Source of the DNA: Mytilus edulis
Lineage: Eukaryota
Direction of reading: 5' to 3'
DNA length: 64,000 nt
Assembly (NCBI RefSeq): GCF_963676685.1
Contig: NC_092346.1
Location: 82,708,001 to 82,772,000 of the forward strand
Every line of letters begins with the position of its first letter. Position 1 is the first letter of the stretch. The notes beneath the pieces are model-generated. The model worked only from the letters and a program-made list of their open reading frames with translations. It had not been told where the DNA came from and ran no database searches. The position numbers and the translations under genes are program-made. Shown in pieces: positions 1-58,700 of this stretch.

Positions 1-340
1 GTAAATGCAGGGACAACATTTGGTTGCCGCCCGCCCGACTTACATCCCCAAATCAATAACCAACATTTTTGTCACAAAAATCAGGTTAAAAATGACCACG
101 TAATTGATAGTCATGTCAACACTAAAGTGCTGACTACACGTTGGAAAAGCATATAATTGAAGATTAAGTTTCCCCTGCATCTCACCATTTAACACTTTTG
201 AAAGCAGTCTGAACTTGACTGAATAATAAACTTTTATATTATATGCACAATAATAAAGGCATGAATGCATCTAAATATATTTTATTTTCTCTTAACAGAG
301 AAACAAAATGTCAATGACAACAAAACACAAATGAGTGAAT

Positions 341-5656: not shown

Positions 5657-8600
5657 CTGTAAAGAAACAAAACAACATTTTAAGTTTCAATTTTAAACGT
5701 ATTTCATCAACTACCTAATACTTACTGTGCATTCAAGCAATGTGCTAGTTCTTTATATGTGAGAGGTAACAATGAATGATACAAGCTATGTTTCATGCTT
5801 ATAATTTGACTGCACAAATCTGTTTATGAACTATCTTTTTTCTGAAAATATCTTCATAGGAAAAAATTAATTAATGAAAACAATATAATATGGTTTTTGC
5901 TCTTATCTTACTATTGTTTCATTTTATTTACCTACTGGCTTTAGATTTTTAAGTTTAATATTCATCAAAATTAATTGAGATATTTTCTGGATGTATTAGT
6001 TATTTCTTGTTTCATTTGGCTGCTGTGCTTTAACATTTACCTCACATCTCCTTTTATTCATTTTCATACTGAGTCACATTATCCCCATGGTTGTAAGAAT
6101 ACAGAGCAGAAAACTATATACAGGTTCTTTGATGTCGTTTGAACAGACTGAATTCATTTATTCAAAATAATCCTTAAAATAAACAGTGAATGACTGGGAA
6201 AGACTTAACAGTATGAAAATGCTTTGATTATATATGAACTTTGATATTTTATACTCTTTCTATTTTCATATACAGAGAATGTGTTGATTGACCTATAGTT
6301 TTCAATACAGAAAAATACTTTTAGATCTATGGAAAAAAAAAACCTTTATAGTAAGGTCAGGTTTACATTTCTCTTTCATGCAAGTTTTTTTTACCATTTT
6401 TATTACTGTACCAAATAACTAAGACTTTTAAGAAAGTGAATTAGTTCAATTTGATTCTCATGGTCCGAGAACACAATTATTTTGTAGTGCATTTCTTTTA
6501 GAACATAAATAAAAATTAAAAAAATCCCACTTGCGCTTTCTCAAAGAAACTTTTACAGTGTGTTGTACTACTTTTGGGACAAATTATATCAAAATTATAG
6601 AAAACTTCATCGTCTCTAACTCAAAATATTGACAAATTTATGTTTAGGGCGTCTTGAAATCTTTTGACAGCTTCTGAAGTGCTAATTTTCAATCTTTTTC
6701 AGGTGGACCAAATCACTACTTTCCTTTAAAATTCTGGACCCAAATTTTTTTACAATGTAATTTCACCCCCCTACTTGCAATTTGAGGCATTAAACATGGA
6801 GAAATAAATTTGGAAGGGGTATAAAAATTAATGGCAAGTAACCCACTGTCAACACTAGGGACTATATTTGTGAACAACGAAAATCAAGGGACGACAATTG
6901 TGGTCTGGGACCTCATGTGTATATATGAATCAGTAAACTCATCATATCATAGATGCCAGGATTAAATTTTGTATTTACCCCAGACATGCATTTCGTCTAC
7001 AAAAGACTTATCAGTGATGCTCAATTCCTAAAAAGTTAAAAGGGCCAAATAAAGTACAAAGTTGAAGAACATTTGAGGACCAAATCTGATCTTAGAAATA
7101 GAGTTATCTTTCTTAGTAGGTTTATTTGTCATGTCCTAGGAAGTGTTGTGTATTGATTACAAATTATGATTTAAAGAAACCAGAGTCATATATGACCCAA
7201 AACTAATCATTCTACAAAATCACTGTAACTAAAAAGAAAAAAAAGGCAACTAAAATAAACTGGTATAAAATCTAGAAAAGCTATTCATAAAATTATAACC
7301 AAAAATTATAACCAAATATCAGTTCAATATTCTTAAAGAAGGTTGATAATGCGGGTAATAAAATTACATGGCTTCACAATCTTTGGTGATTCTTCAACTG
7401 GAAACCAATTTCAATATATGCACTTAATTATTCATCTATCAAAATATGAGTTCTTCAATATTATTGAATTAATTACCTGTATTTATTTGGCATTAATAAA
7501 ATTCTCTGTAATTTCATTATTGCATCATTAATTCTTCTCACTGCTAAACCATCCTTGGATTTTAAAAGTTGTGGAATGTATTCGGTAAATGTCTTTCCTG
7601 CATTCTTCAATTCAGTCACCTTTTCTACTATAATATCTGAAAAGGTTTATTATCATTAATTGGAATTTAGTTTATTTGATTAGTTTTATACTATGCACAC
7701 ACAAGAAAACCAGCATAGCCATCAATTAGAGGGCAACTCAGTATTAAAATAAACTTATAAAAGTTCTGGATCAGCCACTGTACAAGAACTAGAACATAAC
7801 GTAAAAAATTACCAGAAGTTTGAAGGATTGAGTCTTATAACTCTTGAAAGACAAGTCGATAAGAAATTTTCAAAGAAAGTTTACTTTCTCATTGCAACAG
7901 TTGGCCAATGTTTCAAGTAAATCAATCTGAGCAAATTCAAATATACAGCTTTTTTATTATCTTAAATCTGACAATTAACATTCTGTAACTATAGAAAACC
8001 ACATCAGAAAATTATGAAAATAAAAAAGAAGCTTCCTTTTATTAATACCAACAAGCACAGCATACTTTATAGTGTATGATATGTGAAAATTGTATAAATC
8101 TGACGTTAAAAGTTCCATAACTCTAAAACAAAAAGTAAACCATTTCTTCAAAATTAAAATTATAAAGGAGTCTTTTTTCCACCATTTCAAATATTTCATG
8201 CAATTTTCATGTTTTTAAACAAACCATTTTTGTATTTTTGTTTGACATGTGAACTGACAGACAAACAATGGTTAACAATAATACATACCAGCTATGATGA
8301 GCATATAAAATAGTATACATAAAGTGTTTATTATTGCAAAAGAATAATCAATCAAATAGATCTATACAATTTAAAAGAAATGACTGAAAAGTTCATTTAA
8401 AATTTAAAAAATTTCAAAATTCTGTTCACATTATATTAAGAGATTCACTGAATTTGTTTTGGGTTTTTTTTTGTGAAAAAAAATTAGGTTAAAAAAAAGA
8501 AATATACTAAAATTTAAAAGCTTACTGTAATGACTGTGTTGCATAGCAAAACTAAAAAAAAATTAGGGCTCTTTATACATCAATCAAAATCAATTTGATT

Positions 8601-32600: not shown

Positions 32601-35135
32601 TGGTGAATGGTATGAGATAATAATTTTCTAATTCATACTGATTGCCTTCATTTAACTCATTGTTGTTAAATTCATTTCTCAATAAAAATTAGTTTCATTA
32701 TTCACTGATCTATGAGACAGTTTATATATATACTGACACATGAAAGAAATCATAAATCCTATTCAGAATTAGGATTGATTATTTCGTCTTGAAAATTGAC
32801 AAGTGTAATAACTAATATTTAAACAATTAAAATATTATCATGTAATCTGAGGCATGTAAGGATTGTTTAAAGTTTTCAAATTTTGACAGTTAAAATCCAT
32901 TTAGCAATTTTACTGTACATGCTGAATAATGTATAACATGTATAAGTTAGAGCTCTGACAAGACTGATAAACCAATTCTGAATCTTGGAAGGCTTACTTT
33001 AAGAGGGGCGTTAAGGAGGAGTATCTGCGAAGAAGAACGAGAAATAAAATTTTCATTTCACTATGAACAAACAATTAAAAATTTCTTGCACGTTGATTTT
33101 TTTACAGATTTCAGGAAACATGGTGAATAATGAACCTTTTTCATGGCTGTGTGTGAAATAAAAATGGCATAACATGTTGCACGAAAATAACCCTTTACCA
33201 CCCTCATTTAAGCTGGAGCAAGTCATATGCATTTTTTACAAAGTTGTAATGAAATTTTTAGACTTACTTTAATGTCTGATTATGCTATAGATTCTGTTCT
33301 GTAAATCTTGAAATTTTTTGCATTTCGAGATTTGTAATAAATTTTCTATAATATAATCTTGAAATGAAAATACAATATCAAAATCTATCCTTCAATTACA
33401 TTCATTGTAAGATAAATAGATATAAGAAGATGAGGTATGAGTGCCATTGAGACAACTCTTCATCCAAGTCACAATTTACAAAAGTAAACCATTGTAGGTA
33501 AAAAAAAAAACTGCCTTCAACACAGAGCCTTGACTCACATCAAACAGCAAACTATAAAGGGCCCCAAAATATTACTAGTGTAAAGCCATTTAAACGGGAA
33601 AACCAATGCACATGTACAAATTTATCTATAATTATAAATGGCATATAATATACATTGTACATGTATCTATGAATCATATACATGTACAATGTACAACATT
33701 TATCCACAATTGTATAAAAAAAAATATTTAAAGTTGTTTTAGACTCTTATGTTTTTTTCTTATTAACTACATGTACAAAAAATGTACAATGTATATATTG
33801 CTATTTTGATTTTTCAATCTAAAGTTAGTCGCCTTTTTAAACTTTTTTTTCATCAAACTTTTCTTAGACTTGTACAAATGTATCTTCTCAGTACATACAT
33901 GTCACACAATTAAATACAGTGATCCACCTATTTATTTAGAAAATTTTTGCTGCATTTTTAATAAATATGTGCCATTTGAAGTATATAAAATATGGATTAA
34001 AATGCCTCTGGCCTTTGTTAGTCCGGTATGATTTTTAATTTTAGTTTCTTGTGTACAATTCGGAGTCTAGTATGCTGTCCATTTATGGCGCAGGAATAGT
34101 GTCACAATGGCGTTTTTATGCCATTGCATAAATGAATTATGCGATGGCATAAATCTATTTATTAAATAATTGTATTTCTGGACTTGCATTATTATTTATG
34201 CGATTGCATAAATCTATTTATGCGATGGTATAAATCTATTTATGCGAACGCAAAAATATCTTTACATTTACGCAACTATGGCGCAGGAATAGTGTCACAA
34301 TGGCATTTTTATGCATTGTGACACTATTACCATGCAATATCCATTATCACTGAACTAGTATGCACATTTGTTAAGCCAGCTGAAGGACGCCTCCTGGTTC
34401 AGGAGTTTCTCGCTACATTGAAGGCCCATTGGTGGCCTTCGGCTGTTGTCTGCTCTATGGTCAGGTTGTTGTCGCTTTGACACATTCCCCATTTCCATTC
34501 TCAATTTTATTAAAAATTGTAAACACAAGTTAGAAAAATATCCATAATAATGTTTGAGGACCTGTTTGGCAGATCTAGAGTTAAAATTTACAAAAGATGT
34601 ATCTTAAATTTGAAGCTGGGTCCATAATAAATATTAGCAGACATATGTCTCTGATATTAGTATTACTTAAATAGAATACTGTATCATATACTATACATGT
34701 ATATACAAATCATCCAATGAAGTCACTTATTTGGGATAGTTATTTTCTTTTTAAGGGATTGTGTTGAATGATTTGCTTTTTCATCTTCAAATATTCAAAA
34801 ACTCACCTTGATATTTTTCGAACATTGTCATTTGAAATAAAATACATGATGTTTTCATGTACAGAATGGAGCATGTGAGTGTCAATTTTATCCCTTCTTT
34901 TTCCAAAACTGCTTTCATCTTCATGAGATTCTTTCAAAAAATATCCAACCATTAATCCAACTAAAAACATAACACTTAAGCTCAAAATAATCAAAGAAAA
35001 TGCCCATGTGCTAAAAGTTCTTTTAAGTTTCTTTTGGGCTGGAGTTTCAGGTGTATAAATTCTCCCTACATCATTAGGATCATCCGACACAGTACTCCAA
35101 CTTCTGTATTTTGTAAACGAACTTGCACTCGCCAT
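5488..35135 (-). CDS. M28B family (GCPII/NAALADase/transferrin receptor-like) type II membrane protein, probably catalytically inactive; 12 coding exons, ~658 aa
   Basis: Exons 35135-34807, 27720-27447, 22352-22233, 16216-16129, 15459-15373, 12518-12426, 11371-11187, 10609-10472, 9251-9108, 8836-8647, 7636-7477, 5656-5488. All have GT-AG boundaries and compatible phases, totalling 1977 nt. Motifs are collinear with GCPII/TfR: GLDRVEVQEYDVVVTYPD, GELVYGDYGR, NVVGSITG..DRFILIG, GWTPWRSVKFCSWD, AVAYIDLD, LLPFN, RRINDAIMKLQR. Confidence 0.9.
6462..6912. mobile_element. Non-autonomous DNA transposon with 4-bp TSD
   Basis: TCAT|GGTCCGAGAACACAATT ... AATTGTGGTCTGGGACC|TCAT. Confidence 0.7.
6977..7020 (-). 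ncRNA. Decayed minimal hammerhead ribozyme motif (G8->A)
   Basis: Minus strand GCAUCA CUGAUAA GUCU-UUUGU-AGAC GAAA UGCAUG UC UGGGGU; lies in the same repeat family as the other copies (about 6932-7085). Confidence 0.7.
7477..7636 (-). CDS. M28B-like gene exon 11 (helical dimerisation domain)
   Basis: cttttcag|(D)IIVEKVTELKNAGKTFTEYIPQLLKSKDGLAVRRINDAIMKLQRILLMPNKY-AG|gtaatt; aligns with LRMMNDQLMFLERAF. Confidence 0.88.
8647..8836 (-). CDS. M28B-like gene exon 10
   Basis: ttccacag|TSDDDHHHMYSLAAARVASLVTLRLLDEELLPFNITFFTSKVYNAI...KLLST-G|gtaaat; aligns with [25 protein letters not shown]. Confidence 0.88.
9108..9251 (-). CDS. M28B-like gene exon 9
   Basis: catgacag|VPDPNNDNLVLENTWDGLLHSMKTETRIQQFGVPVFHASVSQTNNLTQ|gtaaat; overlaps track ORF 8988..9200. 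Confidence 0.82.
9719..10030. repeat. 30-bp minisatellite (~10 units), intron 8 of M28B gene
   Basis: Unit TCAGAGTATATGTTTCAG(T/A)ACTG(T/C)CATACT; explains track ORFs 9645..10055 and 9823..10062. Confidence 0.95.
10472..10609 (-). CDS. M28B-like gene exon 8
   Basis: ctctatag|MQTMSTQSSAVAYIDLDLGQINNGSHWLHLAGSSMFSDLVTSVVKE|gtaagg; aligns with VAYINAD...PLMYSLVHNLTKE. Confidence 0.88.
11187..11371 (-). CDS. M28B-like gene exon 7 (degenerate active-site exon)
   Basis: gtattacag|(D)RFILIGASRSHLQVGTSYLLELARSFKDMQRGNGWTPWRSVKFCSWDHDGISDLGFSQYLK|gtaaag. Confidence 0.92.
11669..12118 (+). mobile_element. HINE/pearl-like (Helentron-associated) non-autonomous element
   Basis: AACAAG start, two internal ~175-bp repeats (…AAACTACCTTGACCAAAAACTTTAACCTGAA), GAC(A/G) microsatellite-like tract, terminal hairpin ATGCCCC…GGGGCAT followed by an A-run. 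Confidence 0.7.
12426..12518 (-). CDS. M28B-like gene exon 6
   Basis: cttttcag|(R)NISVRLVSNYIQITQSVKNVVGSITGDLER-G|gtaaa; aligns with [27 protein letters not shown]. Confidence 0.88.
12590..14378. repeat. 43-bp tandem array (~41 units), intron 5 of M28B gene
   Basis: Unit TGATTCATTATTCCTATTCAGAC(T/A)TGTGAAGATAAGGTTTGTA. Confidence 0.97.
14383..15053. mobile_element. piggyBac-like non-autonomous element
   Basis: TTAA|CCCTTTCACCGAT ... ATCGGCGAAAGGG|TTAA (12/13 TIR match); subterminal direct repeat ATCCCGGTAAA.CGGGACTCATCG near the right end. Confidence 0.85.
15373..15459 (-). CDS. M28B-like gene exon 5
   Basis: aaatatag|(D)TSQQYPFPVQMLSRNISEQLLMYYSTHN-A|gtgagt; aligns with PSIPVHPIGYYDAQKLL; phase 1-1. 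Confidence 0.8.
15943..16069. repeat. Tandem duplication, 63 bp x2
   Basis: GTCAAGTATGGTCAATACTAGTG...CACTACATTATT repeated. Confidence 0.9.
16129..16216 (-). CDS. M28B-like gene exon 4
   Basis: ctgttacag|IRNGITFGVRGILIQNAEKEKMSDITDCL-G|gtagga; aligns with VKNAQLAGAKGVILYSDP. Confidence 0.8.
16408..17079. repeat. Near-perfect 32-bp minisatellite (~21 units)
   Basis: GGCATCAACCAAG(G/A)CTAGCACAGACACTATAT; no spacers. Confidence 0.97.
18254..18350. repeat. Tandem duplication, 48 bp x2
   Basis: TGATAAAAAATTCTTGTGATATATATAAATCAGATTTGTGAATAAGAA twice. Confidence 0.9.
21668..21937 (+). mobile_element. SINE-like interspersed repeat (other copies 24020-24340, 34005-34510)
   Basis: Shared CCTGTCCCAAGTCAGGAGCCTCTGGCCTTTGTTAGTC ... 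TTTGACACATTCCCCATTTCCATTCTC in three copies. Confidence 0.75.
22233..22352 (-). CDS. M28B-like gene exon 3 (PA/apical domain)
   Basis: acatccag|GELVYGDYGRSIDLVRKNRSMSLQGKVLMIRQGEVSIKEK|gtatgt; aligns with GCPII GDLVYVNYAR...SGKIVIARYGKVFRGNK. Not in the ORF track. Confidence 0.9.
25250..26482. repeat. Compound degenerate minisatellite (48-58-bp units)
   Basis: GAGTATGTCAGTAAATGAAGTACTATGTCAAC units (25250-25960) grading into AGTATGGCAGTACATTGCAGT(A/T)CTATGTCAATCTTTCAGTCAGCAGG units (26200-26482). Confidence 0.9.
27447..27720 (-). CDS. M28B-like gene exon 2
   Basis: Acceptor ctattacag|, phase matches exon 1 (AG|A = Arg); encodes DLKLLK...TYGLDRVEVQEYDVVVTYPDPDRPNQLVVINSSG...NEVE; donor GAG|gtatta. 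Confidence 0.88.
29937..30078. mobile_element. Short MITE (CAGTGGC…GCCCCTG family; end remnants near 7765-7780 and 22744-22758)
   Basis: CAGTGGCAGATA ... TATCTGCCCCTG imperfect TIRs with poly-G/poly-C runs. Confidence 0.6.
34084..34339. mobile_element. Non-autonomous DNA transposon (IS3EU-like termini) inserted into a SINE-like repeat
   Basis: TCCATT|TATGGCGCAGGAATAGTGTCACAATG ... CATTGTGACACTATTACCATGCAATA|TCCATT; 6-bp TSD; the uninterrupted host sequence is visible near 21757. Confidence 0.75.
34807..35135 (-). CDS. M28B-like gene exon 1: cytoplasmic tail, signal-anchor TM helix, stalk
   Basis: ATG at 35135; hydrophobic helix WAFSLIILSLSVMFLVGLMVGYFL (aa 44-67) preceded by basic KKLKR; donor AG|gtgagt, phase 2. 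Confidence 0.88.
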
Positions 35136-35673
35136 TTCCGCGTAAATACTGAAGTTATAATTGAGAGTTTCACCTGAGGCACTTCATTATTGATTTTGGG
35201 GACGATCTCAAAGTTTAATTCATGACTTATACTGAAAAGGGTTTAAATCACTCAAAATTTCAATTTCTGTCTAAGATATCGTTTTTTCGTTATACAGGTA
35301 AACTTTGATCTGTTTTTATAACTTTATCAAAGAAGAGTCTGAATTTCCCGCGGGAGATTGCAATGCAAACTATTAAAACATTTACAACTTCGGAATCAAG
35401 ACCGTTAGTAATCCGTACTTTCCCGAAATTATTGCATTTTTCAAAACTTTTTTTCTGAGTGTGTTTTTTTCCCCTACTATTCTGTAGACTATTCTTGCCA
35501 TGTGTAGGGTTATAGTTTGTCAAGTTCTTGTGATGTACCTTAACTTTAGTCATTTTCCTATGCATATACTGATTATGTGATGCTGTTTCTGTATCAAAGT
35601 TCCCATATTTTTTTCAAAAGTTTACATTTAAGTAGTCACGTTTAGTTTAAATAATTATTATTTGGACTTGTTC

Positions 35674-35759: not shown

Positions 35760-35855
35760 ACTTGTTCACGTTCTGCTATATAGTTATTCATGTCCTCCCA
35801 CTAAATATAGAGCATACACCATATAAAGTTAAGTATGCCCATATCTTATCTTATA

Positions 35856-36130
35856 TCTAGAAATTGACAATGGGGGCTGGTTGAGAACAAAGCTTTACCA
35901 CAAAAGAGATGATTTCATCTTCCCCGTTTGTAAACCTTCCATTTTTATGTAGCAACAATCTAGGCAGTGCCTGCATATGAAGTATACTGAATCTCCAAGT
36001 TAATACGATATTCCAGAGCTTGCAGTTCCTTTTAGGATTGCTTTCATGCAAGGAAGCTACTGAACCAAGAGTTCCAAGTGCCAGATTGACGCTATCAAGA
36101 CGGTTGGTTGACCGTTATGACACCCCTGTT
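35856..36130 (+). mobile_element. Penelope-like retroelement RT C-terminal remnant
   Basis: Frameshifted LEIDNGGWLRTKLYHKRDDF.FP..N.PFLCSN…PAY.VY.S.LIRYSRACSSF. Confidence 0.7.
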
Positions 36131-37272
36131 TCAAAGATGACGGCGAAAGTGTTCCAACTGTCGTAACCACAACCATGGCAATTTGACATCAAATGTGACC
36201 TACCGAGTTAACTTATCACCGATTTTGTACTTACTAAATGTGGTGTTGGATCTGCTTAACCTTTCGAAGCAATTGAGATCACCCACGAATTTAGAATGCA
36301 TGGGTTCGTGTTGTTGAGTCTTTAAAAGAGAGGCGAAAGATACCAGAGCGACTTTCAAACTCATGAGTCGACTTGAAAAAAATGACAACGCCATTACTAA
36401 AAAAGAAAAGGACAAACAGACAAACAATAACTACACAAAACACAACATAGAAAACTGAAGTTAGACTGAACAACACGAGTTAGACTAAGCAACACGAACC
36501 CAACCAAAACATAGGGATGATCTCAGGTGCTTAGTTTTCTATATTGTGTTTTGTGAACTGTTGTTTGTTTTTTCTTCCTTTTTCCTGTTTTCCCATGGCA
36601 TCATCATTTTGTCACCTATTTTCGACTTATGATTTTGTTTATCCCTTTGCTCACTGTTATAAGTTCAAAGTTCAAATTTCTTTATTTTCCAATTAAGGGT
36701 CACTGATGGGACATAATGACAACAATACACAATACATTATCATTCATAATCTTCCATTAATCTTCAAGTTAGCTTAATGTTGGTTGGTTTTCTTGACTCA
36801 GTTATGACGACAGCCGGTTTCACAACAAGTTATTTTTAATCATTGATTGGTTTTGGTCCCTTTTTTGTACTTTCTCGATTTTATCAATTATATATGTTTC
36901 TTGTTTATAATGCTTTATGAGCCCACAACCGGTCCAATTAGCAAACTCTAGTTTGAATCGGACGATAAACTCAGCATTTTACTCTTAGACCTAACCTTCT
37001 CACTGACTTGTCACAAGAACAAAAAAGAAAGTGATATCAATATAAATCATATATAAAGATTATCCTTTAAAGGAGTTACTATATATAACATAGTCCTTTT
37101 AGCCTTACTAATTGCAAGAACACAATGTTATCTGGTTAAACTATAGTTAGATACGAATTTAACCCGGGCCTTCTTTTACCTTTATATATCAATAGAAATA
37201 AGAAGATGTGGTATGAGTGCCAATGAGACAACTCTCCATCTAAGTCACAATGTTTAAAAAGTAAACAATTAA

Positions 37273-44771: not shown

Positions 44772-45274
44772 ATTTCTTTTCTATATTCATAAATTTAGAT
44801 TGTTCAGTTGGAGGACTGGAAAGCAGTTATTTATAAGGGGAAATTTTAAAGATTTATAGATATAAGAAGATGGTGCATGAGTTCGAATGAGACAACTTTC
44901 CATCAAAGTAATAATTTGTTTAAAGTAAACCATTATAGATCAAAGTAGGTCCTTAAACACGGAGCCTTGGCTCACAGCGAACACCACGCTATATAGGAAC
45001 AAAAACATTGCTAGTGTTAAACCATTCAAACAGGAAAACCAACGGTCTAATTAAAAAAAAAAAAAAAAAAAAAGAAGATTCAAAAGTACAGGTCAATCAT
45101 TTTGATACTTAGCTATTTGATTATTTGATTACGGCATTGTTTATTAAACTCTTATTTGATTAGATTTGCTTCCAAAACCAATTGAGAAATTTGTAAGATG
45201 TTACCAAAAACAATTCGAATTAAAGCAATGGTCTTAAAACTGCTTATTTACATACAATACTACTAAGAAGTAAA

Positions 45275-45560
45275 ATTTAAAAAATGCTGAACTCCGAGGA
45301 AAATTCAAATCAGAAAGTCCCTTATCAAATGGTATAATCAAATGATAAAACACATCAAACGAATGGATAACAACTGTCATATTTCTGACTCGGTACTGGC
45401 ATTTTCAAATTTTGAAAATGGTGGATTGAACCTGGTTTTATAGCACTTCACCTCTCACGTGTATGACAGTCTCATCAAATTCTGTAATATTTACAACGAT
45501 GCGTGAACAAAACAGACATACTAGGTAAAATTGTCAAAATATTGGTACAGCAGTCTAATA
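45275..45560 (-). mobile_element. SINE-like repeat with GCCTGTACCAAGTCAGGAATATGACAGTTGT core (other copies 46690-46940, 52490-52770, 55980-56125, 56810-56930)
   Basis: Near-identical ~280-bp copies at 45275 and 52490. Confidence 0.75.
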
Positions 45561-46283
45561 TTAATACTAATCGGTACTAAAATTGATATAACAAAAACAC
45601 CGCTATGATATTTTAAAAGTATCGCATTGATATTTTAAAAGTATCGCATTGTTTATTTATGTATATAAGAAAAACACAGCACTTCAAATTTTACACTGAC
45701 ATAAACTTAAGCTTCTAACTAACTTCTGCATGTATATTTAGACTCAATTGTTGTTTATATTTGAACAATAAGTTTTAAAATTAGTATTTTCTTAATTTTT
45801 CGTTGCCGAAAACAACATTTTCCGCCTGGAATGTCTGCATATTTACAATTGATATTAGACAATATCGCTATGTGATATAAGAAAAGTTTTTATCGATACG
45901 CTTCTTCCATAGACTGGGTGTGTGTAGGATATCCTTGTTCAGGTTATCAAAATAAAGTAATAATAAAGCATACCCTGGAATGCTGCCGATAAAAACCAGC
46001 AAATGAATATTCATAAAACATAAATATTGTATTAAGAACTGCTCAATAAAATCGTAATAATACAAAACATACATATGATAGGAACAACCCCTGTCACAAA
46101 TGTCTGCTGTATTTAATTTAAACTTACATCTATTATCAATGATATTGTCCATCGCATACTGTTTAGATCAGTGGGCATTATTAAAGAGGAAACGGAGAAG
46201 CGCTCCGTCCTAAAACTTTAAATTGTTAAAAAAAAATGAAAAAAGGCAATTGCATTACAAAGCCATCGCGAAAAAAACCAAAT

Positions 46284-46682
46284 TTAGTTATGTTTTAATT
46301 TTCTGATGACAAAATCGACTGGTGTGCCAATGTAAAGTTTATTCAAAGATCTTATTTCAAAATTTGCAGGATAACCTTTATTAATAAGTTTGTTTAAAGG
46401 TTCGATGAGTTTTACACGGATCACAGTGATTTCCGCGCGTTTAGTACTCAACCACCGTAATTCAGAAATACCGTTTTTTAATAAGTTTTCTACAGGTACA
46501 ACCACATTTACTAATCAAATCTAATTTTATATGGTAACGAAATCCACGACTTATTAATTTACCAGTGATGCATTGACTACGTTCGTTAAAATCTATGACA
46601 TCACTACACAGACGGGCATGACGAACGAGTTTATTCAAAGTGTATATAAACACCGTATGGTGGAATTAAAGGAACATCGCCA
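46284..46682 (-). mobile_element. Penelope-like retroelement RT C-terminal remnant
   Basis: GDVPLIPPYGVYI…LVRHARLCSDVIDFNERSQCITGKLISRGFRYH…LIEPLNKLINKGY, with frameshifts. Confidence 0.7.
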
Positions 46683-47399
46683 ACAGCAGTATATCGCTGT
46701 TCAAAAGTCATAAATCGATTGAGAGAAAACAAATCGAGGTTACAAAGTAAAACCGAGGGAAACACAGCAACTATAAGAGGAAAACAACGGAACACCAGAA
46801 CACTGAAGTGCAATAACACCAAACGCAAACACACATAGAAACAGACTATTTGATAACAATTGCCATATTTCTGACTTGGTACAGGATATTTTGTCGGGTT
46901 GAACCTGGTTTTACGGCTAGCCAAACTTTCTGCTTTCACGGCAATGTTGATTCTGACACTAAAATAACAACGCCACGTGACAGGAATACAGTACAAACAA
47001 ACGCAAGAATACAGAAAAACGCATAAATAAATAGTGAAATAGTACATTAGTAACATGAAACCCACAGAATAAAAACGAACATATCCCAATAAAGACAACA
47101 CTGGACTCCACAAACAGTGATGTATTTTTGAGACGTACAGTTAATTGGAAGGAGATAAGAAAAATTAATTATTATTTTCCCAATACTAGTCCAAATAATT
47201 ATCATGATTATTACGGTATTTAAAAGGCTATTTTAGCTTTAAATTATCACATAGTTTGACCTCGAGCATGCTATATATTACACCAGGGTTAATCCACAAT
47301 TTTCTTAATTTAATTTTGTCATTTGTTTTGGGACTTTATATTTTGAATTTTCCTCGGACTTTGGTATTTTTGTGATTTTATTTTTTACGCCTTCATATG

Positions 47400-47540
47400 T
47401 AGTAACATTCCTACAGTGCCCGTATACGGGGTTTTCATCTCATAGTTGCTACATTATTCCAGGGCCTGACAATCATGATGTCCGAGCTTAATGGAAGATG
47501 ACTACAATGAAGATATTGCAGCAAGGGTGATAAGGGGGAA
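47400..47540 (+). mobile_element. Penelope-like RT remnant (third fragment)
   Basis: SNIPTVPVYGVFIS*LLHYSRA, the same motif as near 35950. Confidence 0.55.
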
Positions 47541-47839
47541 AACCTGAAACGTTTTTCTTTGTTTGGTCATAAAATTAAAGCACTTTCAAGTACAATAGTG
47601 TAAGTCATCCCCTCGAAAGTTTCATGGACCTCACTATGATTTGGTTAACCACTATGGACTATTAGTATATGTTTTATATATGACTACCGAAATATTCCAC
47701 CTATCATACTCATAATCCCTTCCCCATCTGATCCTTGATTGTGACGTTACCGAAAGTGACTCATTATTGAATGTTTACGAGATTGATCAACACGACAGGT
47801 GCATATAGTTATCAAATGTACCAGGCTTATCATTGGATT

Positions 47840-47881
47840 CACCAGACGCGCATTTCGTCTAAATAAGACTCATCAGTGACG
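47840..47881 (-). ncRNA. Minimal type I hammerhead ribozyme motif, core intact
   Basis: Minus strand CGUCA CUGAUGA GUCU-UAUUU-AGAC GAAA UGCGCG UC UGGUG: stem I, CUGANGA box, 4-bp stem II, GAAA, short near-palindromic stem III, GUC cleavage triplet. Confidence 0.8.
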
Positions 47882-47959
47882 GTCAGACGCTAAACTGGTT
47901 ACCCTTTTGATGTTTGATAAAACAAAATTAACAAAAAGACGATAGACAAGAATAAAAAA

Positions 47960-48660
47960 AATGGATGACGGAAATGTGATGTATCAACTGGGAAGATTAG
48001 GAGTATTACCAGATTTTGATTTTGCAGATGCTAATGTTCTTCTGTCAATCAAGAACACATTTGCCAGCCAAAGCAGATATCATAAAAGAAGAAAAGTAAA
48101 ACAATGTGTATAAGCATAGATGTAATACACCATGTTGCCTATTACACCGGACAATGACGAAATAGAGATGGTAGGCAGTTTAAATATACATTGGAGCTGT
48201 TATAGATACCAACGACAATGCAACAACCGACATAGCAAATGGAATTGAAAAAATAGCAAGAGCAGCATACTACAAGTTAAGAAAAATATGGGCATCAAAC
48301 CTACACAGTAGAAATATCAAAAAGAAAATTTATAAAATCAATTTAATATCAGTGTTATTACATTGGACAGAATGTTGGAATATAAGCAAGAGAAATGGAG
48401 AAATATATAACACCTTTAACACTAGCAACTGGAAAATAGTCAGGATATTTGGCCAGCTATATTTTCAAACTCAGAACTGCTGCAAAGAGCCAATATGTGC
48501 AGCATTACCAACACTAATTAGACCAGGAGATAGAGTCCGATAGGTGACATCCTGAGGATGGTCACACAAAACGATTACCAAATCGGCTTGACGTGGACAT
48601 CACCAGGAATGAGAAAGTAGGAATATCAACGGAATATGGAGATGAAAGGTAGACAAGTAA
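47960..48660 (+). mobile_element. Decayed RTE-clade LINE fragment
   Basis: DFDFADA (RT [YF]ADD box) followed by ARAAYYKLRKIWAS…KKKIYKINLISVLLHWTECW; multiple frameshifts. Confidence 0.7.
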
Positions 48661-49641
48661 AGAACGACTTATTTATAAGTTGTAAGAGTCTGCTTTCTCA
48701 TCTATTTTAAGAGGTATGAATGAGTGCCAATCATTTATAATACATGTATATATTCTGAATCAGTCAAGCCACCACTGACCAAAATATCATCTTGTTCTAT
48801 ATACTTAATCAAAGATATCAAATAATGTCATGCCATCACAAACGCGGACTAATGGGCTTATGTTTCACTGGAAAAATATGTCCACCTCCAATCGAATCGA
48901 CCCAGTGTTAAAAACTAATCAAATATTGCAGGATTCTAACATAGTTTTTCAGATACGCGTTTCGTTTGTATATGATAAGACTCTCAGGTGAAATTCAAAC
49001 TAAAATTTTCGAAAAGCCAAAAAACATTGGCAATTTTATACTAATGAACAAGAAACAAATTCAAATGAAGACAGTCTTGGTGTTGCTATATCTTTTTTCA
49101 TGTCCCACTTGAAAAATATAAATGAGCCAAAACCAGATTTCGCTGTGAATCAGTATAATAAAGAAAGCCTACCTACCCTCTAATGTACCTACATAATTAA
49201 CCCTCCATCATGTGAATATTCCAAGTCATGAAATTCTTTCAACATTGTCCTAGAGAATATTTTAGTGTTGCTCCCGAAAAAACCTTGTGTAAATGACAGA
49301 TCTTTAGGCGTCACTTTTAAAATTTACACTCTTTTTTTTTATATAGAGCAAGTAATGGTTAGCAAAATCTCAATATTTGATTCTCGTAAGATGCCTCATA
49401 CGAATAAGTCGTTTTGTGTAATGTTGCACTCACTTGTCAAATTCCACTAAAATCTTTAATATTTATACAATTGTATTCATACGCATATCGATAAGCTTAT
49501 ACATTTTTTTAATATTTTCCACCAACAATTTCTTTGAAATTTTAAGGTTTATATCAATATATATAAAATATAAAAAAAAATGATTAATTTGTCTTTTTAT
49601 CTCTATTTTCACTATTTGAATCTTCTCTATTGTTGCTCATT

Positions 49642-49784: not shown

Positions 49785-52700
49785 CTGTAACATAAATTTG
49801 TTCATTATCTAAAATGCTATTTGCATTATTATTTAGTTTTAAACATCAATAAACTATTGTAAAGATGTTTATTTGAACCACTCGAACTGTATTTGTATAT
49901 ACATCAATTCGAAGAACTTTGACTAAAAGTGGTGCACTGTAACATGGATGGTTTGAATACACCGCTTTTCATTAAAAAAAAATAAAAAGTATAGTGATTT
50001 CTGTTACAGATATCTAAAGCTCTCCAATTATTTCGGTTTTTATACATTCTTAATTGAATTTCAAGAATTTGGCTACAAGCATGCCTGGTAATCGTTAATA
50101 AAAAAAAGTGTTATTCTCATTATTTTAATGTTGACCTGCAGTATTGCAGATTGGAATCCTAAAATGTCTTAATGTGTGTCTGGTCTGGGAAAGGCAACAT
50201 CTTTAATTGGCTTTTAACTTATACAACTTTTATCATATTATGATATTATGATAATTCTGAACTTTTAAATATGTGTATGATCATTCTAGTAAAATGCAAT
50301 ACATCATGCCTAAAACTTACCCGTTTTCGGAACATGGCCTGAAAAATATTTAACCTACAAAAGTTAGTTACGTGCATATATCGAGAGCTCGTTTCACAAA
50401 AGTGTCTTTCAATCTGATGGTATTTTTATTAGGTCAACAAAGGATAATTCTAAAATAAGTAATGTATTAAATTACGACATCACTAAAGTAACATGTTTCT
50501 TTACACAACATGTATCAATGCGCTGTTACAGACAAATAAATAGTTGATAAAGTAAATTAGTGCCATCAGAGATCATCAGAAAGTATGTGAAAATAGCAAG
50601 CTTTGAAAGTAAAAGTAGATCATAGCAGTAACTGTTGTGAAGTCATACGATTCGTTTGTTTGTTTGTTTTTGTTTTATTTTGCTGATGGTTCCGGACTTG
50701 ATGATTAACATTTTGGCAGAGTTAAGCCTATTCGTATTTTTTTCTATTCTTCATTATGATAAACAAAGCAACTAAATTAAAGAGCCCAATATATGCTATA
50801 CACGGTTAAAGATTAAAAAGAGAGTAAGAAAGAAAAGTAAATATGATAGACCGAAAATTGAAAACGCATTCATCAGATTGGCATTTGCGTCATGGCAAAG
50901 AACATCTTATTTACTCTACTAGACATCAATCATCTCATGGGTCAAAGACAATGTATTTAATTAAATTATAGAAAAAGCTTGATCTAAGATTAAAATTCAG
51001 AAGACCAAAATAATAGTTGCCAAGAAAAGATCAACAGCACATATTTGTAAACCAAAATATTACTTCTACATGAAAATTGGAATTTTGAAAACATTACTGG
51101 ACAATTAATTTTTTGATAAACATTATTTTTAAATAACAATTAATTCAGCAACAAAATACGAGCTCCTCTGGTGACAAAAATTCGCAAAAGCTAAACCATT
51201 ACAAATACATCCGAGCTCCAATCGAAAGGGCGAGATACTAGACAAAGTACAGTTATAGTACCTTGACAATCACTTTCATCAGAACCATCCGAACAGTCTA
51301 CAATACGATCACATATCCATGCTGTATACACACACTTCTTTCCATGATCACATGAGACCATACCTGTGGCACACTGTATGCGTATTACTGGTGCTTTAGT
51401 TGTAACTGTAACATAAACATTGATACAGAATTAAGACATCATATCATTATATTACGTAAGTAAACTTTTAAATGACTGTAGATGGTAAAAACTTTTTAAA
51501 ATAAACAGTATTCATTTTTTTTTATTATCATATACTATACTAGTCATCTCAAGTCTTCTTTTTTTTTGGAAAGGGTACATCTATATTTTAGCATTTGTGC
51601 TTTTATTTTATTTTCTTAGAAATTTGAAATTATTATTAGTACTTATATATTGATCATCTTTTGATGGCCATTCTTTTTATTTTATATTTCACATATTGTA
51701 TATTAACATTTAAAAATCACATCGTGGCTTGTTCAAACTTGATTTCTCTACAAACAATTGTGAATCCAGCGTTTATGGTCGGGTAAAGTATCTCTATCAA
51801 CTTGCACGAACCATTCAATGAAAAATTTGCTTTCACATTCATATTCTAAAAAGAAAAAAGTACCTTTCTACCAGAACCTTGATGTATAAACCATGAAATA
51901 TGGTATAATTTCAGATGATAATATTAACAATCAAACCCGTGGTTATTCGTAACTTGAGTAAAGGGGCTGATGCTGGAATTTTCTCATATTAGCAATGCAG
52001 ACGTGTGTTGGCACTGGAACTTCAGTATTATTTGCAGAAATGATTCGCCTACTGCTACATAAAGGGGGTAGACTAGTGATCAGTTTCACAAAAAGTCTTA
52101 CATCTAAAGTTGAACAATTCTATATACTCTAGTCGTAAGATTATTTGTGAAACTGAACACTGGAATGTGGTAGAAATGCGACATTAATGAGGGAAACGCT
52201 ACAGCCACAGAGTTGGAAATAATTTTCAAATTTTCAAATATTTTTCCAGGAAAAGGGGAACAGAAAACCTATAGCTATATAAAACAATACAATATGGAAA
52301 ATCAGCGTGTTGTAAACTCGATTATTCATATGTCTGTGTAATAATGTTCCTTGTATTGTCCGAGCAGCATCGGGTCGTAGGTTCACAGTTCTAATTTACG
52401 AAGGTGGAAACATTGTCTCATTATTTTATTTAGGAAATTTTTAAAGTGTATCACGTTTTACATGAAAAAGGTCCTGGAAATTTTTGTTAAAGAAAAATCA
52501 CAAAAGTACTGAACTCCGAGGAAAATTCAATCGTAAAGTCCCTATTCAAATGGCAAAATCAAATGACAAAACACATCAAACGAATGGACAACAACTTTCA
52601 TATTCCTGACTTTGTACATGCATTTTGAAATGTAGAAAATGGTGGATTGAACCTGGTTTTATAGCGCTAAACCTCTCACTTATATGACAGTCGCATCAAA

Positions 52701-55700
52701 TTCCGTTATATTTACAACGATGCATGAACAAAACAGACATAATAAATAAAAGTCAAAATATTGGTACATCAGTCATCAGTCACTGTGTTACAATTTCAAA
52801 AATACAATCATTTACAAGAAAGCACAAAAACCCCACCTCTAATATCTTGATTATGAGAAAGCAATTGCTTTCATCTTTTCAGTTGCATAATCATAAATTT
52901 ACTAAAAATTCTGGCTTTAGGAAGTCCGTAAATACGTTACACATACTCTTCTGACCTAAGTCTTTACACTATACACAGTCTTTATAATCCGATAATATTC
53001 ATGTGAGTAAGAAATGTATAAAACAAAATACCGATTTCAAAGGTAAATTAAGAAAGAGGATGTCGAATAAAAACTGACAAAATCAAATGTTATCAATCAC
53101 ACGAATCAACAGAACAAGTGAAAACAATAAAAAAAAAATGAAATGCTGTGTGTTCATATGTTTCTTACCAAGTGTCTATTATGAATAACATAGTTTAACC
53201 CTTTTTCATCTTTTTTTTTCTTTTTCTATCTCATGTATTGTTTAACAAAAAAAATGATAAAGATAAACGTTTTAAAGTTGTTGTTTTTTTTGGCAAAATA
53301 GTTTTCATCTACAGTTTTCCTGTTGAATTTGCCTCCAACTAATGCGGTTTATTTTGGATTTTTTTTTTGGTGAATTTTCAAAGAGGATAGAAAACTATTT
53401 TTTTTTTTAACGTGTTCAAATTTTAAATGATAAAATAAACAAACACGTCATAAGGGAAACAATGAACATTGCATAAAATATTGCAATCAATATTATAGGT
53501 TTAAACTACCTGGAATTAATATCGAATTTTCTTCATGTTGTGAAATATACCATTTTAAAGACAATTTCAAGAAGAAGACGCTTTACCAAAGTAAGTATAA
53601 TTTAACGGAATATGAAGATTATATTATAAATTAGAATTACACTTTATAAATAAAATGAACAGCAAGTGTATGTCCTAATAATAACAGATTTAGATATATG
53701 ATAAAATTGAACATCCCTTTTCTTAATTAGAAATAGCATGAAAAGAATTGTTCATCTAGTTTACATTTACACAATGTATATAGATAAATATGATTGAATG
53801 GATATTCTAATGGCATTAGCTTGACTGCTTCATACAAAACTAGTATTTCTACTTTCGTTTTATTGATAACATTTTATTAATTGGATGAAAGGTCTTGTTT
53901 TTTTCTGATTTTTTTTTTACATTTTGAATACTAACCGCCAAGCATAAACAATCACATTTTAATAATTATGTGTCTTATATCGAAATAGGGTATCAGCTAC
54001 TGCATGTTTATCGTCTCTTTAAACAGAGGTAGTTAATTAGTTCAAACGCATTGATGCACATATGCGATAACTATTTACTATATGGTAATATACAACTATA
54101 TCTTACATTAATAAAGTCTTCAACTAGAATTTTGGCAATGATATTTTTATAGACCGTCTTTACAACCCCATAATATTCACGTGAGGTAGAAATGTATAAA
54201 ACAAAATACCGATGTCCAAGATAAATAGGGGGAAGTCAATAAAAACTGACAACATCAAATGTTATTAATCACATGAATTAACGGAACGAGTGAAAACAAC
54301 TGTCATATTCCTAGCTTGGTACAGTCATTTGAGTGAAAACAACTGTCATATTCCTGACTTGGTACAGTCATTTGAGTGAAAACAACTGTCATATTCCTGA
54401 CTTGGTACAGAATTTGAGTGAAAACAACTGTCATATTCCTGGCTTGGTACAGTCATTTGAGTGAAAACAACTGTCATATTCCTGACTTGGTACAGAATTT
54501 GAGTGAATACAACTGTCATATTCCTGGCTTGGTACAGTCATTTGAGTGAAAACAACTGTCATATTCCTGACTTTGTACAGTCATTTGAGTGAAAACAACT
54601 GTCATATTCCTGGCTTGGTACAGTCATTTCAGCGAAAACAACTGTCATATTCCTGGCTTGGTACAGTCATTTCAGTGGAAACAACTGTCATATTCCTGAC
54701 TTGGTACAGTCATTTGAGTGAAAACAACTGTCATATTCCTGACTTGGTACAGTCATTTGAGTGAAAACAGCTGTCATATTCCTGACTTGAAATTGGCATT
54801 TCCCGACGACATTGGTGGGTTATACCTTTATATAGTTTAACCTCCCATTTGTATACTAGTTGTCTATAGTTCCAATATCGACAAAATTAGACGAGAAGGA
54901 CCAGGTTCAATCCACAATGTTTTCTTAAAATGTCCTGTACCAAGTCAGGAAAATGGCAGTTGTTATCTTATAGTTCGTTTCTCTGAGTTTTACATTGTCG
55001 TTTGGATTTTTGTAGGACTTTAATGTTTACAAAACTCTGAATTTTTGAAATAATAATAAGGCTTTTCTATCTCAGGAATAGATAACCTTAGCTGTATTTG
55101 GCAAAACCTTTAGGGATTTTGGTCCTCAATGCTCTTTAACTTCGTAATTTATTTGACTTTTAACATATTTTTTTTATTCAAGCGTCACTAATGAGTATTT
55201 TGTAGACGAAACGCGCGTCTGGCGCAAATATAAAACTTCCATTCTTCAATCCTGGTATCTATGATGAGTTTATTTAGTGTTTCTGTTGTTTCGTTGTTTT
55301 CCTCTTATAATTGATGTGTTTCACTTGGTTTTAGTTTGTAACCCAGATTTTTTTTCCTCTCAATCGATTTATAACTTTCGAACAGCGGTATACTACTGTT
55401 ACCTCTATAGTGTTACTATACAAATCATTGCAACCATCAGAAACAACAACTATTATTGGGAAGCAGCAGCCAAAACTAAATTAACATGCACAACAACTGA
55501 TCAAAAATTCAAACAAAAGTACAAATAAATCTAACAGAGACGCACATAAAAAAGTTTAAGTAGTTGATGCCATTTTGTTTTTTACTTTAACATGTTTGTT
55601 TGTATTCTATATATTGTATCCTATAGTTCGTTTCTATGTATGATGGCGTTTGCTTTTGTTGCACTTCAGTGTTCCTGTTGTTCCTTTGTTTTATAGTTGA

Positions 55701-58700
55701 TGTGTTTCCTCGGTTTTAGTTTGTAACCCGGAATTGTTTCTTTCGATCGATTTATGATTTTTGAACACCGGCATACTACTGTTTTCTTTATCTATAGTGA
55801 TTAAGATTATAACACAATGTTGACTGCTGTACTACTATTTTGGATATTTGTACTAATTATGTCTGTTTGTTTTGTTCACACATTTTTGTGTAGATAATTG
55901 AATTGTATACGACTGGTACAAAAGGCTGAGGTTTTAATATTAAGCAACAAAACTATGCTTCATCCAACATTATTTACACAAGGAAATGCCTGTACCAAAC
56001 CAGAAATATGACAGCTGTCTTCCATTCGTTTGATGTGTTTAAGCTTTTGATTTTGCAGTTTGATAAGTTCCTTTTAGTTTTGAATTTTCCGTTGAGTTCG
56101 GTATTTTTGTTATTTTACTTTTGACAAATAAAAAAAGTTCTTGAAGTTGATAGTACACACCGTATTTAGCTTGTTTACCACTTCTAGATAAAGTACAAAA
56201 TGTGAAGATTATTATCAGTAACATTTAAAAGTTAAAATTCTCAATGCTCTTCAAATTTGCAATTGTTTGGCTTTCTACATATTTTGATATGAGCGTCACT
56301 GATGAGTCTTATGTAGACGAAACGCGCGCCTGGCGTACTAAATTATAATCCTGGAACCATTGATAACTATTCTGTCTTCCAAAAACATAAGAATACCAAT
56401 GAACCATGTGAAACTCAAAATCTAATTGGTCTACACATGGGAGTAATATCAATGGCAATATTAACGTCGACATAAAACTTCCATGGTTCACTAAAGTCGT
56501 GTAAGAACTATCAAGTACTATAATAATTTGTTGTCAACATTAATGAAAATGAAATTTGGTAATGGGGTGTCCTTACGGTAGTGTATGTAACTAAAGAGAT
56601 AACAAAAAGGGAGAGAGGACAAAATTGATGAGATTCTTGAACTGTCCTCAAGTTCTCAAAGTAAATTTGTACATAATATCAACAAGAAATAAAATAAAGC
56701 CATGTGTGTCTTATTGCAAACTAATTGATTAAAATATGATTAAGATATGCAACATTTGAAAAACAGCAGTATAATTATAATAAAAAGTATGTATTACAAC
56801 TTATAAACTTTAAGTCAGGAATATAACAGTTGTCCATTCGTTTGGTGTGTTTGGGTGATTGATTTTGTCAATAGAAGGGACTTTCTGAATTGAATTTTCG
56901 TTTGAGTCCGGGTAATTTATAATTTTTACTTTTCTTTTATATATTTAATATCTATTTTATATTTAATAATTAAGTTAATGATGTTGTCCCGTTTCTGATA
57001 AAAAAAAATGTGGGAAATGTTCAAATATTGATGTTATCATTCAAAAACATGGTCACATTTTCGGTTGAATACAATTGAAGATGAGTTTTCTTAGTTTGGA
57101 TGACATTTACCACACCCTTAGACCATGACAATACATCAAAGATACCAGGGTTATAATTTGGTACTTTTTTCAACATATTTTTAAATCATTGCGCTCGAAT
57201 CCAAACAGTTAAAGTTCACTTTCAAAAACGAATTTGAAGAGCATCAAAAATATAAATCCAAATAAGGCAATATATACATAGGAGTATAGAAATCCCTTAA
57301 TGTTTCAAACTATTCCATATTTTATCAACAGTAAATTTACAGAAAATAAAAATATCAATAATTCTGGTTTTAGATAAGTAAATGGCTTTTTTTTTCATAA
57401 GCAAAAACTTTCAAAGGTCACTCTGCAACATGCAGCCTCTGGTAAAATTAAGAAATCATTATCAAAGGTTGCAATGGTAAATCCACATGACAGCATAACT
57501 AATGAAACCAAAAAAATAGTATTTTTCAACTATTGCTATTGTTATGTATTTTTATACGAAAAAATGAAATGAAGTTGCATTGAATTAGTATTTTTCAACT
57601 ATTGCTATTGTTATGTATTTTTATACGAAAAAATGAAATGAAGTTGCATTGAATTATGTATAAAATATTGGAATTTCACATTTTTCCCACAGCATGAGAT
57701 ATGTAGCAGCATACATGTTGGCTGTGATGGGTGGCATTGAAAACCCATCAGTCGACGATTTGAAGAGGATTATTGGAAGTGTCGGGATTGATTCGGATAA
57801 CGAGAAGATAAATCTTGTAATATCTAAGTTAAAAGGAAAGAACATAGAAGAATTGGTTTTGAAAAGTAAGTATTTCAACCAAATAGCTTCAATTTTTGTG
57901 ACTGTGTATGTTTTTGTATGTTGTATTTTCTCTGTCTTCACTTGATTTTGGAGGGTAGAACTTTCGGTATGATATTTTTGGCACTATCTCTTGTGAGTAT
58001 ATTTCTCTAGAGATTTACTTTTAGAGTTTGGCTTCTACAATTCTATTAAAGAAATAACCTACTGTTAAAGATTTATTTCGAATTCTTAACTGTTAACACT
58101 CAGCGTTGTTTACAATGACAGAAACAATTCTGCAAGATATGTTTGAAACATACGTTTTTTAATTGATAAACTCAATTCCAATAGAAATTTATTTTACGAA
58201 TGAAGTAAAAACAATGAAAGTTGACGACAACTAGTGCAATTTCAGTATTAATGATTCAGAATATTTCGTTTAAACTCACAAAAAGTACCAGATGTAGAAG
58301 ATTGTTCAACAAAATTGTGCACATATCACACATTATTAGTTATTATTGTCTTTGACTGGCTTTAAGTAAGTGCGAAAACTATCATATCTTTACTAAGTAT
58401 CGTGAGTCATTTTATTAATATAGATTAAAATCTAATAAATTACACCGTTGGTTTCCCCATTTGAATGGTTTTACACTAGTCATTTCTGGGGCCCTTTATA
58501 TAGCTCGGTGTGAGCCAAGTCTCCGTGTTGGAGACCGTACTTTGACCTATAATGGTTTACGTTTACAGATTGTGACTTGGATGGAGAGTTGTCTCATTGG
58601 CACTCATACCACATCTTCTTAGTAACGTCTTCTTCAAATATTGAATTGAATGCAGCTGATTTCAAAAGTTATACGAAATGAAAGGAAGTGGCCATAACAT

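Follow-up and report, generated by a model that had tools for sequence, protein, structure and literature searches.

A weakened hammerhead copy in Mytilus edulis belongs to an abundant repeat that shares a hairpin with Naiad elements

The window analysed here, a stretch of 64,000 nucleotides from Mytilus edulis (assembly GCF_963676685.1, contig NC_092346.1, positions 82,708,001 to 82,772,000 of the forward strand), carries on its minus strand, from 47840 to 47881, the complete catalytic core of a type I hammerhead ribozyme. The locus raises the question of what this ribozyme belongs to, whether this particular copy matters, and which enzyme would move the repeat that contains it. It is in our judgement probable that the hammerhead is part of a weakened 88-bp copy of an abundant 356-368-nt repeat, that this repeat is the published mussel retrozyme, and that its RNA is inserted by the enzyme of Naiad elements. 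Hammerhead repeats of this kind are known already from mussels; new are the hairpin and the fixed end point that the repeat has in common with Naiads.

The hammerhead at 47840 and its relatives in the window

An earlier note, made from the letters of the window, had claimed hammerheads at 6977-7020 (-), 47840-47881 (-), 55182-55225 (+) and 56293-56336 (+) and a more decayed one near 48950-49000. All four of the precisely placed copies were found where claimed, and the fifth is present with its core destroyed. The claim of a full core with the GUC triplet at 47840 was likewise confirmed, and this is the sole copy in the window with a complete core: the elements CUGANGA, GAAA and UH together with G10.1-C11.1 are present in it and in its family, whereas in each of the remaining four a lesion of the core breaks this consensus (Table 1). 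A type I descriptor gave one match in the window and none in any of 60 first-order Markov surrogates. Read on the minus strand, the copy consists of the helix I 5' strand, CUGAUGA, helix II (4 bp with a 5-nt loop), GAAA, a 6-nt self-complementary segment, and UC followed by the helix I 3' strand; cleavage would fall 3' of GUC between 47845 and 47844, exactly where it had been predicted. The Rfam Hammerhead_1 model (RF00163), proposed as a check, does find the 47840 copy, but with 23.2 bits and an E-value of 0.42 it stays under the gathering score of 34.

Table 1. Pieces of the retrozyme family in the window
Feature	Position	Strand	Remarks
5'-truncated solo retrozyme insertion: hammerhead and ~45-nt tail	47798..47885	-	88 bp; subfamily A-like, matching a subfamily A unit of the genome across 88 nt with 84% identity
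Type I hammerhead, complete core	47840..47881	-	5-bp helix I with two neighbouring wobble pairs, 4-bp helix II, A-U and U.G in helix III
5'-truncated copy, subfamily B-like	6945..7084	-	G8>A at 7009, predicted dead
Old decayed piece	48812..49024	-	68-69% identity; core destroyed; continues into a Naiad-type hairpin
5'-truncated copy, subfamily B-like	55007..55276	+	Mismatch in helix II besides G5>A at 55190, predicted dead
5'-truncated copy, subfamily A	56237..56371	+	93% identity; pair beside the cut site lost through U16.1>C at 56329, predicted dead
Tail-only piece, same retrozyme family	57135..57164	-	90% identity over 30 nt; overlooked in the earlier note
Interior piece of the family, without hammerhead	57263..57362	-	71-74% identity
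Interior piece of the family, without hammerhead	88..137	-	84% identity over 50 nt

The label 'minimal' that had been attached to these ribozymes does not fit, because the 47840 copy and its family, with a helix III of 2 bp closed by a palindromic loop and a helix II of 4 bp, are canonical. Minimal hammerheads are without helix III and loop 3 and have a helix II of 7-8 bp in Schistosoma, and canonical metazoan ones have helices of 6, 4 and 1-2 bp plus a palindromic loop, according to the accessible part of Cervera & de la Pena 2014.

Although complete in its core, the 47840 copy is weakened in its helices. Both of the helix I G-U pairs reported earlier are present, but the U.G is family-wide and only the G.U, which stands in for a family G-C pair, is decay. 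The copy has further lost the sixth (last) pair of helix I and carries U.G for C-G at 15.2-16.2. Its hammerhead fold was calculated at +1.6 kcal/mol, ~7-8 kcal/mol worse than the median of -5.7 to -6.7 kcal/mol obtained from 36 intact copies. Its distance from the ensemble is 11-14 kcal/mol, compared with medians of 5-8 kcal/mol for intact copies. The insertion begins at helix I and ends at the usual 3' end of the family, and since it has no second ribozyme it cannot release a circle alone. At 97% likeness, RNA over 47300-48400 amounted to 0, 2, 5 and 0 reads in four runs, 7 in total, all partial and on the core. No read fell on the flanks, and no locus-specific RNA was seen in the four runs; these come from other individuals, so this is weak evidence. 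We conclude that the copy is probably inert and has retained its core by chance. The prominence that had been given to it is not borne out, as intact cores number thousands in the genome; nothing sets the locus apart from the tens of thousands of copies of which it is a decayed one.

Co-option by the host, with the 47840 ribozyme cutting the transcript of a neighbouring glutamate carboxypeptidase II (GCPII)-like gene on the same strand, strikes us as very improbable. The complete core would suit such a role, and a GCPII-like exon lies at 27426-27866 (-) with a probable first coding exon at 34803-35183 (-), ~12.6 kb off; but the copy has destabilising changes in helices I and III, is 16% diverged as other old copies are, has flanks free of reads, and, with thousands of intact cores in the genome, one per window is expected. 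The exon at 27426-27866 is GCPII/NAALADase-like (E 1.2e-5 to human GCPII), and the one at 34803-35183 has a membrane-anchor-like look and gave no match in a family search. Positions 48000-48650 (+), immediately 5' of the 47840 copy but on the other strand, hold a decayed ORF remnant which we take to resemble an RTE-type LINE protein in its C-terminal portion.

Size, fold and RNA of the repeat family

A 24-nt core pattern gave 19,165 exact matches in the 1.37-Gb genome, against 0 for the reversed control, and a 24-nt pattern from the interior of the unit gave 5,786. Successive hammerheads are spaced 356-368 nt apart in a non-coding repeat of 36-38% GC. Among eight distinct full units two groups can be told apart, subfamily A of 356-359 nt and subfamily B of 362-368 nt, with 76-84% likeness between them. 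One hammerhead per 150-450-bp unit, tandem copies and low GC, the traits of metazoan non-LTR retrozymes, are all found in the family, of which the 47840 copy is a solo fragment. The retrozymes of Mytilus galloprovincialis are described, in the accessible text of Cervera & de la Pena 2020 (PMC7229834), as ~350-390-bp repeats with two related ribozyme families and abundant circular RNA, and share with the present family one type I hammerhead per unit, low GC, tandem and dispersed copies, and abundant RNA. Matched by this description (unit size, two ribozyme families), the family is likely the published mussel non-LTR retrozyme or a sister of it. The same accessible text gives ~5,000 motifs, compared with 19,165 exact matches here to a single 24-nt pattern, and concerns full units, whereas the 47840 copy is a fragment. 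On this point the earlier note was correct: the motifs are type I hammerheads of a retrozyme- or Penelope-linked repeat of a kind known from mussels.

The earlier note had asked for covariation of the stems, and this is seen when subfamilies A/B are compared with family C, a sister hammerhead family of ~545-nt units and 779 exact matches that has only the ribozyme in common with them. When 4 copies from the window were aligned with 8 from A/B and 8 from C, 5 of the 13 named pairs changed on both sides, across all three helices, and 95% of the alignment cells paired, against 14-45% in slid controls. Judged from these alignments, covariation supports the hammerhead fold, short of statistical proof because the signal comes from only two lineages. 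Both A/B and the commonest C variant have a perfect 8-nt palindrome as helix III segment, which makes a dimer fold possible, with duplex energies of -13.3 and -10.9 kcal/mol, respectively, against -9.7 kcal/mol for the 47840 copy. At the level of the family, cleavage does not need a dimer: one cloned mussel repeat self-cleaved at ~0.1 per min (accessible text of PMC7229834).

Tandems of family C reach at least six copies, and its units exceed the published mussel sizes (loci L261-L290, e.g. G000:C1:91014553-91017316). The genome also holds at least three further hammerhead types (L097, L135, L137-L139, L143, L145, L149), one of them just past the stop codon of a Penelope-like element (PLE) family with a C-terminal endonuclease and others in ~440-nt repeats or inverted pairs.

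The family is expressed in all four raw RNA runs. On a genomic subfamily A stretch we counted 6,984, 8,057, 11,519 and 4,273 family reads from 8.7, 8.3, 7.3 and 12.7 million records, respectively. In the unit interior the strand bias is 5-10-fold in three runs, the fourth being unbiased, and it drops to 2-3-fold over the ribozyme; the weaker bias there is explained by passive reads added by truncated copies. Under standard library chemistry, the family RNA would be mainly of the hammerhead strand. No pile-up of read ends at the cut site is listed for the family RNA reads of the four runs, and short reads that cross the unit junction fit circles and tandem transcripts alike. Circular folds of the unit have no special stability relative to mononucleotide shuffles (z -1.7 to +0.5).

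Ends of the insertions and the hairpin of Naiad elements

The form of the insertions was assessed on 69 elements from one contig, taken at the first 70 loci of a set selected for intact cores: 54 are solo, 14 are dimers and 1 is a trimer. Their 3' ends are nearly fixed, lying 38-52 nt past the cut site in 52 of the 69 and 0-7 nt before the start of a GC-rich hairpin in 50, while 5' ends spread from 31 to 356 nt upstream. At one locus an inverted truncated copy stands head to head with a tandem; an inverted head-to-head arrangement has been described for PLEs (accessible text of PMC8557442).

The 5' ends bear on the template. Counted by offset from the cut site with the subfamily A pattern, 5' breaks number 38 at 0, 51 at -2 and 34 at +2, and among those checked 28 of 30 at 0 and 28 of 30 at -2 are true breaks. 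A record of cleavage in the 5' ends was therefore rejected, there being no excess at the cut site. A cut linear monomer serving as template would pile 5' breaks up at this position, and as no such pile-up exists, the template is continuous there; it is a circle or an uncleaved tandem transcript, both of which fit the 5' break data. For the 3' end no ligation scars are claimed: in only 63 copies of the genome do both bases that follow the cut deviate, and most of the 30 inspected have small indels or substitutions and not truncations. Several independent copies (L101-L130) carry a 1-3-nt duplication or a two-base swap at the predicted cut site, which could be ligation or template-jump scars.

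Spread from uncleaved tandem transcripts alone, with the hammerhead a passenger and circles that form but do not serve as insertion template, is a possibility to which we give a minor share. It is consistent with read ends and 5' breaks that both fail to pile up at the cut site, with Naiads, which spread without a hammerhead, and with the anole PLE, whose insertion in vitro was not lowered by ribozyme mutants (accessible text of PMC11167929). It sits less well with the fact that units otherwise unrelated have kept the core and, by compensatory changes, its three helices, which argues for selection on the fold, and with Northern blots in mussel that gave mostly circles (accessible text of PMC7229834).

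Naiads are PLEs themselves. Three Naiad families, N1, N2 and N3, were found by searching with one N-terminal-endonuclease frame and have open frames of 1053, 1007 and 1000 aa. Pfam places GIY-YIG at 179-269 of the 1053 aa of N1; the GIY-YIG motif is present in N1 and N3 and was missed in N2 by the motif pattern, and the cysteine pairs as well as the CxC, DKA and C-terminal reverse transcriptase (RT) motifs are present in all three. The endonuclease of N1 has a long cysteine spacer of the kind noted for mussels in the accessible text of Craig et al. 2021 (PMC8557442), and the intact 1000-aa frame of N3 occurs in many near-identical copies. The hammerhead core pattern has no match in one full copy each of N1, N2 and N3, N2 having a destroyed core only.

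Just upstream of their first methionine, these Naiads carry a 63-nt hairpin, and this is the hairpin before which the retrozyme insertions stop. The retrozyme version is 86% identical over 71 nt to that of N3 (seven of seven loci) and 73% identical to that of N2 (seven of seven loci), with alignment scores of 113 and 107, where shuffles reach at most 80 and 85. For N1 the whole-locus alignment is no better than shuffles, and its hairpin, which has an inserted stem, is known by motifs only. Across retrozyme A/B, N3 and N2, only about four independent lineages, double-sided changes affect 7 of 17 pairs of the hairpin, slid controls having none to two, and 98.5% of alignment cells pair. In all 18 assessable loci out of 20, Naiad insertions themselves stop 1-8 nt short of the hairpin, the same offset as in the retrozyme. 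Taken together, the common hairpin and the common end position suggest, at the level of sequence, that the hairpin is bound by the Naiad protein, which would copy the retrozyme in trans. Family C has neither the hairpin of N1-N3 nor a match to the Naiad loci, so that it contributes to covariation of the hammerhead only and lends no independent support to the Naiad link.

All seven N2 loci (L187-L193) contain in their 3' UTR an old retrozyme piece of ~245 nt with ~71% identity and a destroyed core. These fossil pieces have two different lesion sets and were copied with the element (e.g. L187:4996-5233 and 441-678), and the retrozyme is thus older than the latest spread of N2.

The repeat might instead be a detached terminal repeat (pLTR) of a hammerhead-bearing PLE, moved by this parent, the hairpin being a general PLE feature or a relic. 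Such an origin has been proposed for Xenopus retrozymes, for which 24 of 57 families are homologous to known elements, 21 of the 22 being PLEs and the homology lying at the termini, in the accessible text of Li et al. 2026 (bioRxiv 10.64898/2026.07.22.740005), and other PLE families of the present genome carry their own hammerheads just past the stop codon. The survey of PLEs was moreover partial (at least 858 GIY-YIG candidates, many of them intact PLE frames; 150 scored and 15 long frames examined), so that a closer hammerhead-bearing parent may have escaped. No parent was found among these 15 long frames, 14 of which are of the C-terminal-endonuclease type: their flanks were without unit-length or hammerhead match, save ordinary nearby insertions, and those of the C-terminal-endonuclease PLEs had nothing comparable to the hairpin match. 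What the hairpin does match is Naiads, and its offset from the 3' end is equal in retrozymes and Naiads. We therefore regard the terminal-repeat origin as improbable and favour a link to Naiads.

The hairpin region of N3 has in one place grown to an 83-bp tandem array of at least 14 copies upstream of an intact frame (L197:1-1220), and one N1 copy (L132) has a 29-nt tail-only retrozyme insertion in its 3' UTR. The window holds decayed N3 3' fragments as an inverted pair at 35807-36531 and many N1- and N2-type Naiad 3' ends at 45261-47388 and 52489-56938.

A candidate route of insertion and the closest known systems

On balance we favour, with some confidence, a chimeric parasite: a hammerhead circle with a captured Naiad 5' hairpin, in which the hairpin is the cis signal that sets an internal RT start for both partners, so that adding the hairpin to any RNA circle would make it a Naiad substrate. 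Tandem copies would be transcribed, mainly from the hammerhead strand; the RNA itself is observed, and its sense would follow from the read orientation under standard library chemistry. By analogy with the published mussel family, the hammerheads would cut the multimer to unit-length RNA and a host ligase would circularise it. The hairpin, ~45-52 nt past the cut site, appears from its sequence and covariation to mimic the Naiad 5' hairpin and would be bound by the Naiad RT-endonuclease. Reverse transcription would start 0-8 nt upstream of the hairpin, as the fixed 3' ends suggest, run back through the tail and over the cut site, and halt at a random point. Random stops would leave truncated solo copies like that at 47840, and lapping of the template would give dimers and trimers; solo copies would then decay.

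Each of the closest known systems has part of this arrangement. Like Naiads, the retrozyme has 5'-truncated, partly tandem and sometimes inverted insertions (for Naiads, accessible text of Craig et al. 2021, PMC8557442), and like the Naiads found here it has the 63-nt hairpin, which is 5' in Naiads, and insertions that stop just before it. Naiads encode an endonuclease-RT and have no hammerhead, whereas the retrozyme is non-coding and has one. The accessible part of PMC8557442 describes for Naiads neither a hairpin nor a retrozyme partner, and that of PMC7229834 gives for mussel retrozymes no fixed 3' end, hairpin signal or named helper clade, with PLEs only as strong candidate. The green anole Poseidon PLE (Frangieh et al. 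2024, PMC11167929, in the part accessible) resembles the mussel family in that an internal RT start past the hammerhead cut site, near a structure, fixes the genomic 3' end; its main substrate in vitro was unprocessed RNA. Poseidon is autonomous, with a C-terminal endonuclease and its own hammerhead in the terminal repeat, whereas in the mussel family the signal appears to come from a clade that lacks hammerheads. Vertebrate retrozymes (Li, Clavereau & Pollet 2026, bioRxiv 10.64898/2026.07.22.740005, in its accessible part) are likewise non-autonomous, tied to PLEs and present as many monomers, but share a terminal repeat with PLEs, whereas the mussel family shares only the Naiad 5' hairpin. 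In the accessible part of the same survey, Naiads were reported from a coral genome only.

The results bear on the open question of which enzyme moves animal retrozymes and what that enzyme recognises. They offer a candidate protein (N3), a signal of 63 nt in the RNA whose pairs show compensatory change, and a predicted site of initiation; with these, a direct in vitro test becomes feasible. Neither a link between Naiads and retrozymes nor a Naiad hairpin was found in the literature searched, to which subscription papers and a supplement may add; if the proposed role is true, the hairpin would be the first Naiad cis signal within that literature, and retrozymes would have a route of origin besides budding from a hammerhead-bearing terminal repeat. 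Finally, ~170-210 RNA reads in two of the runs join other upstream sequence to the hairpin (L007:1221), which hints at another expressed element with the same signal.
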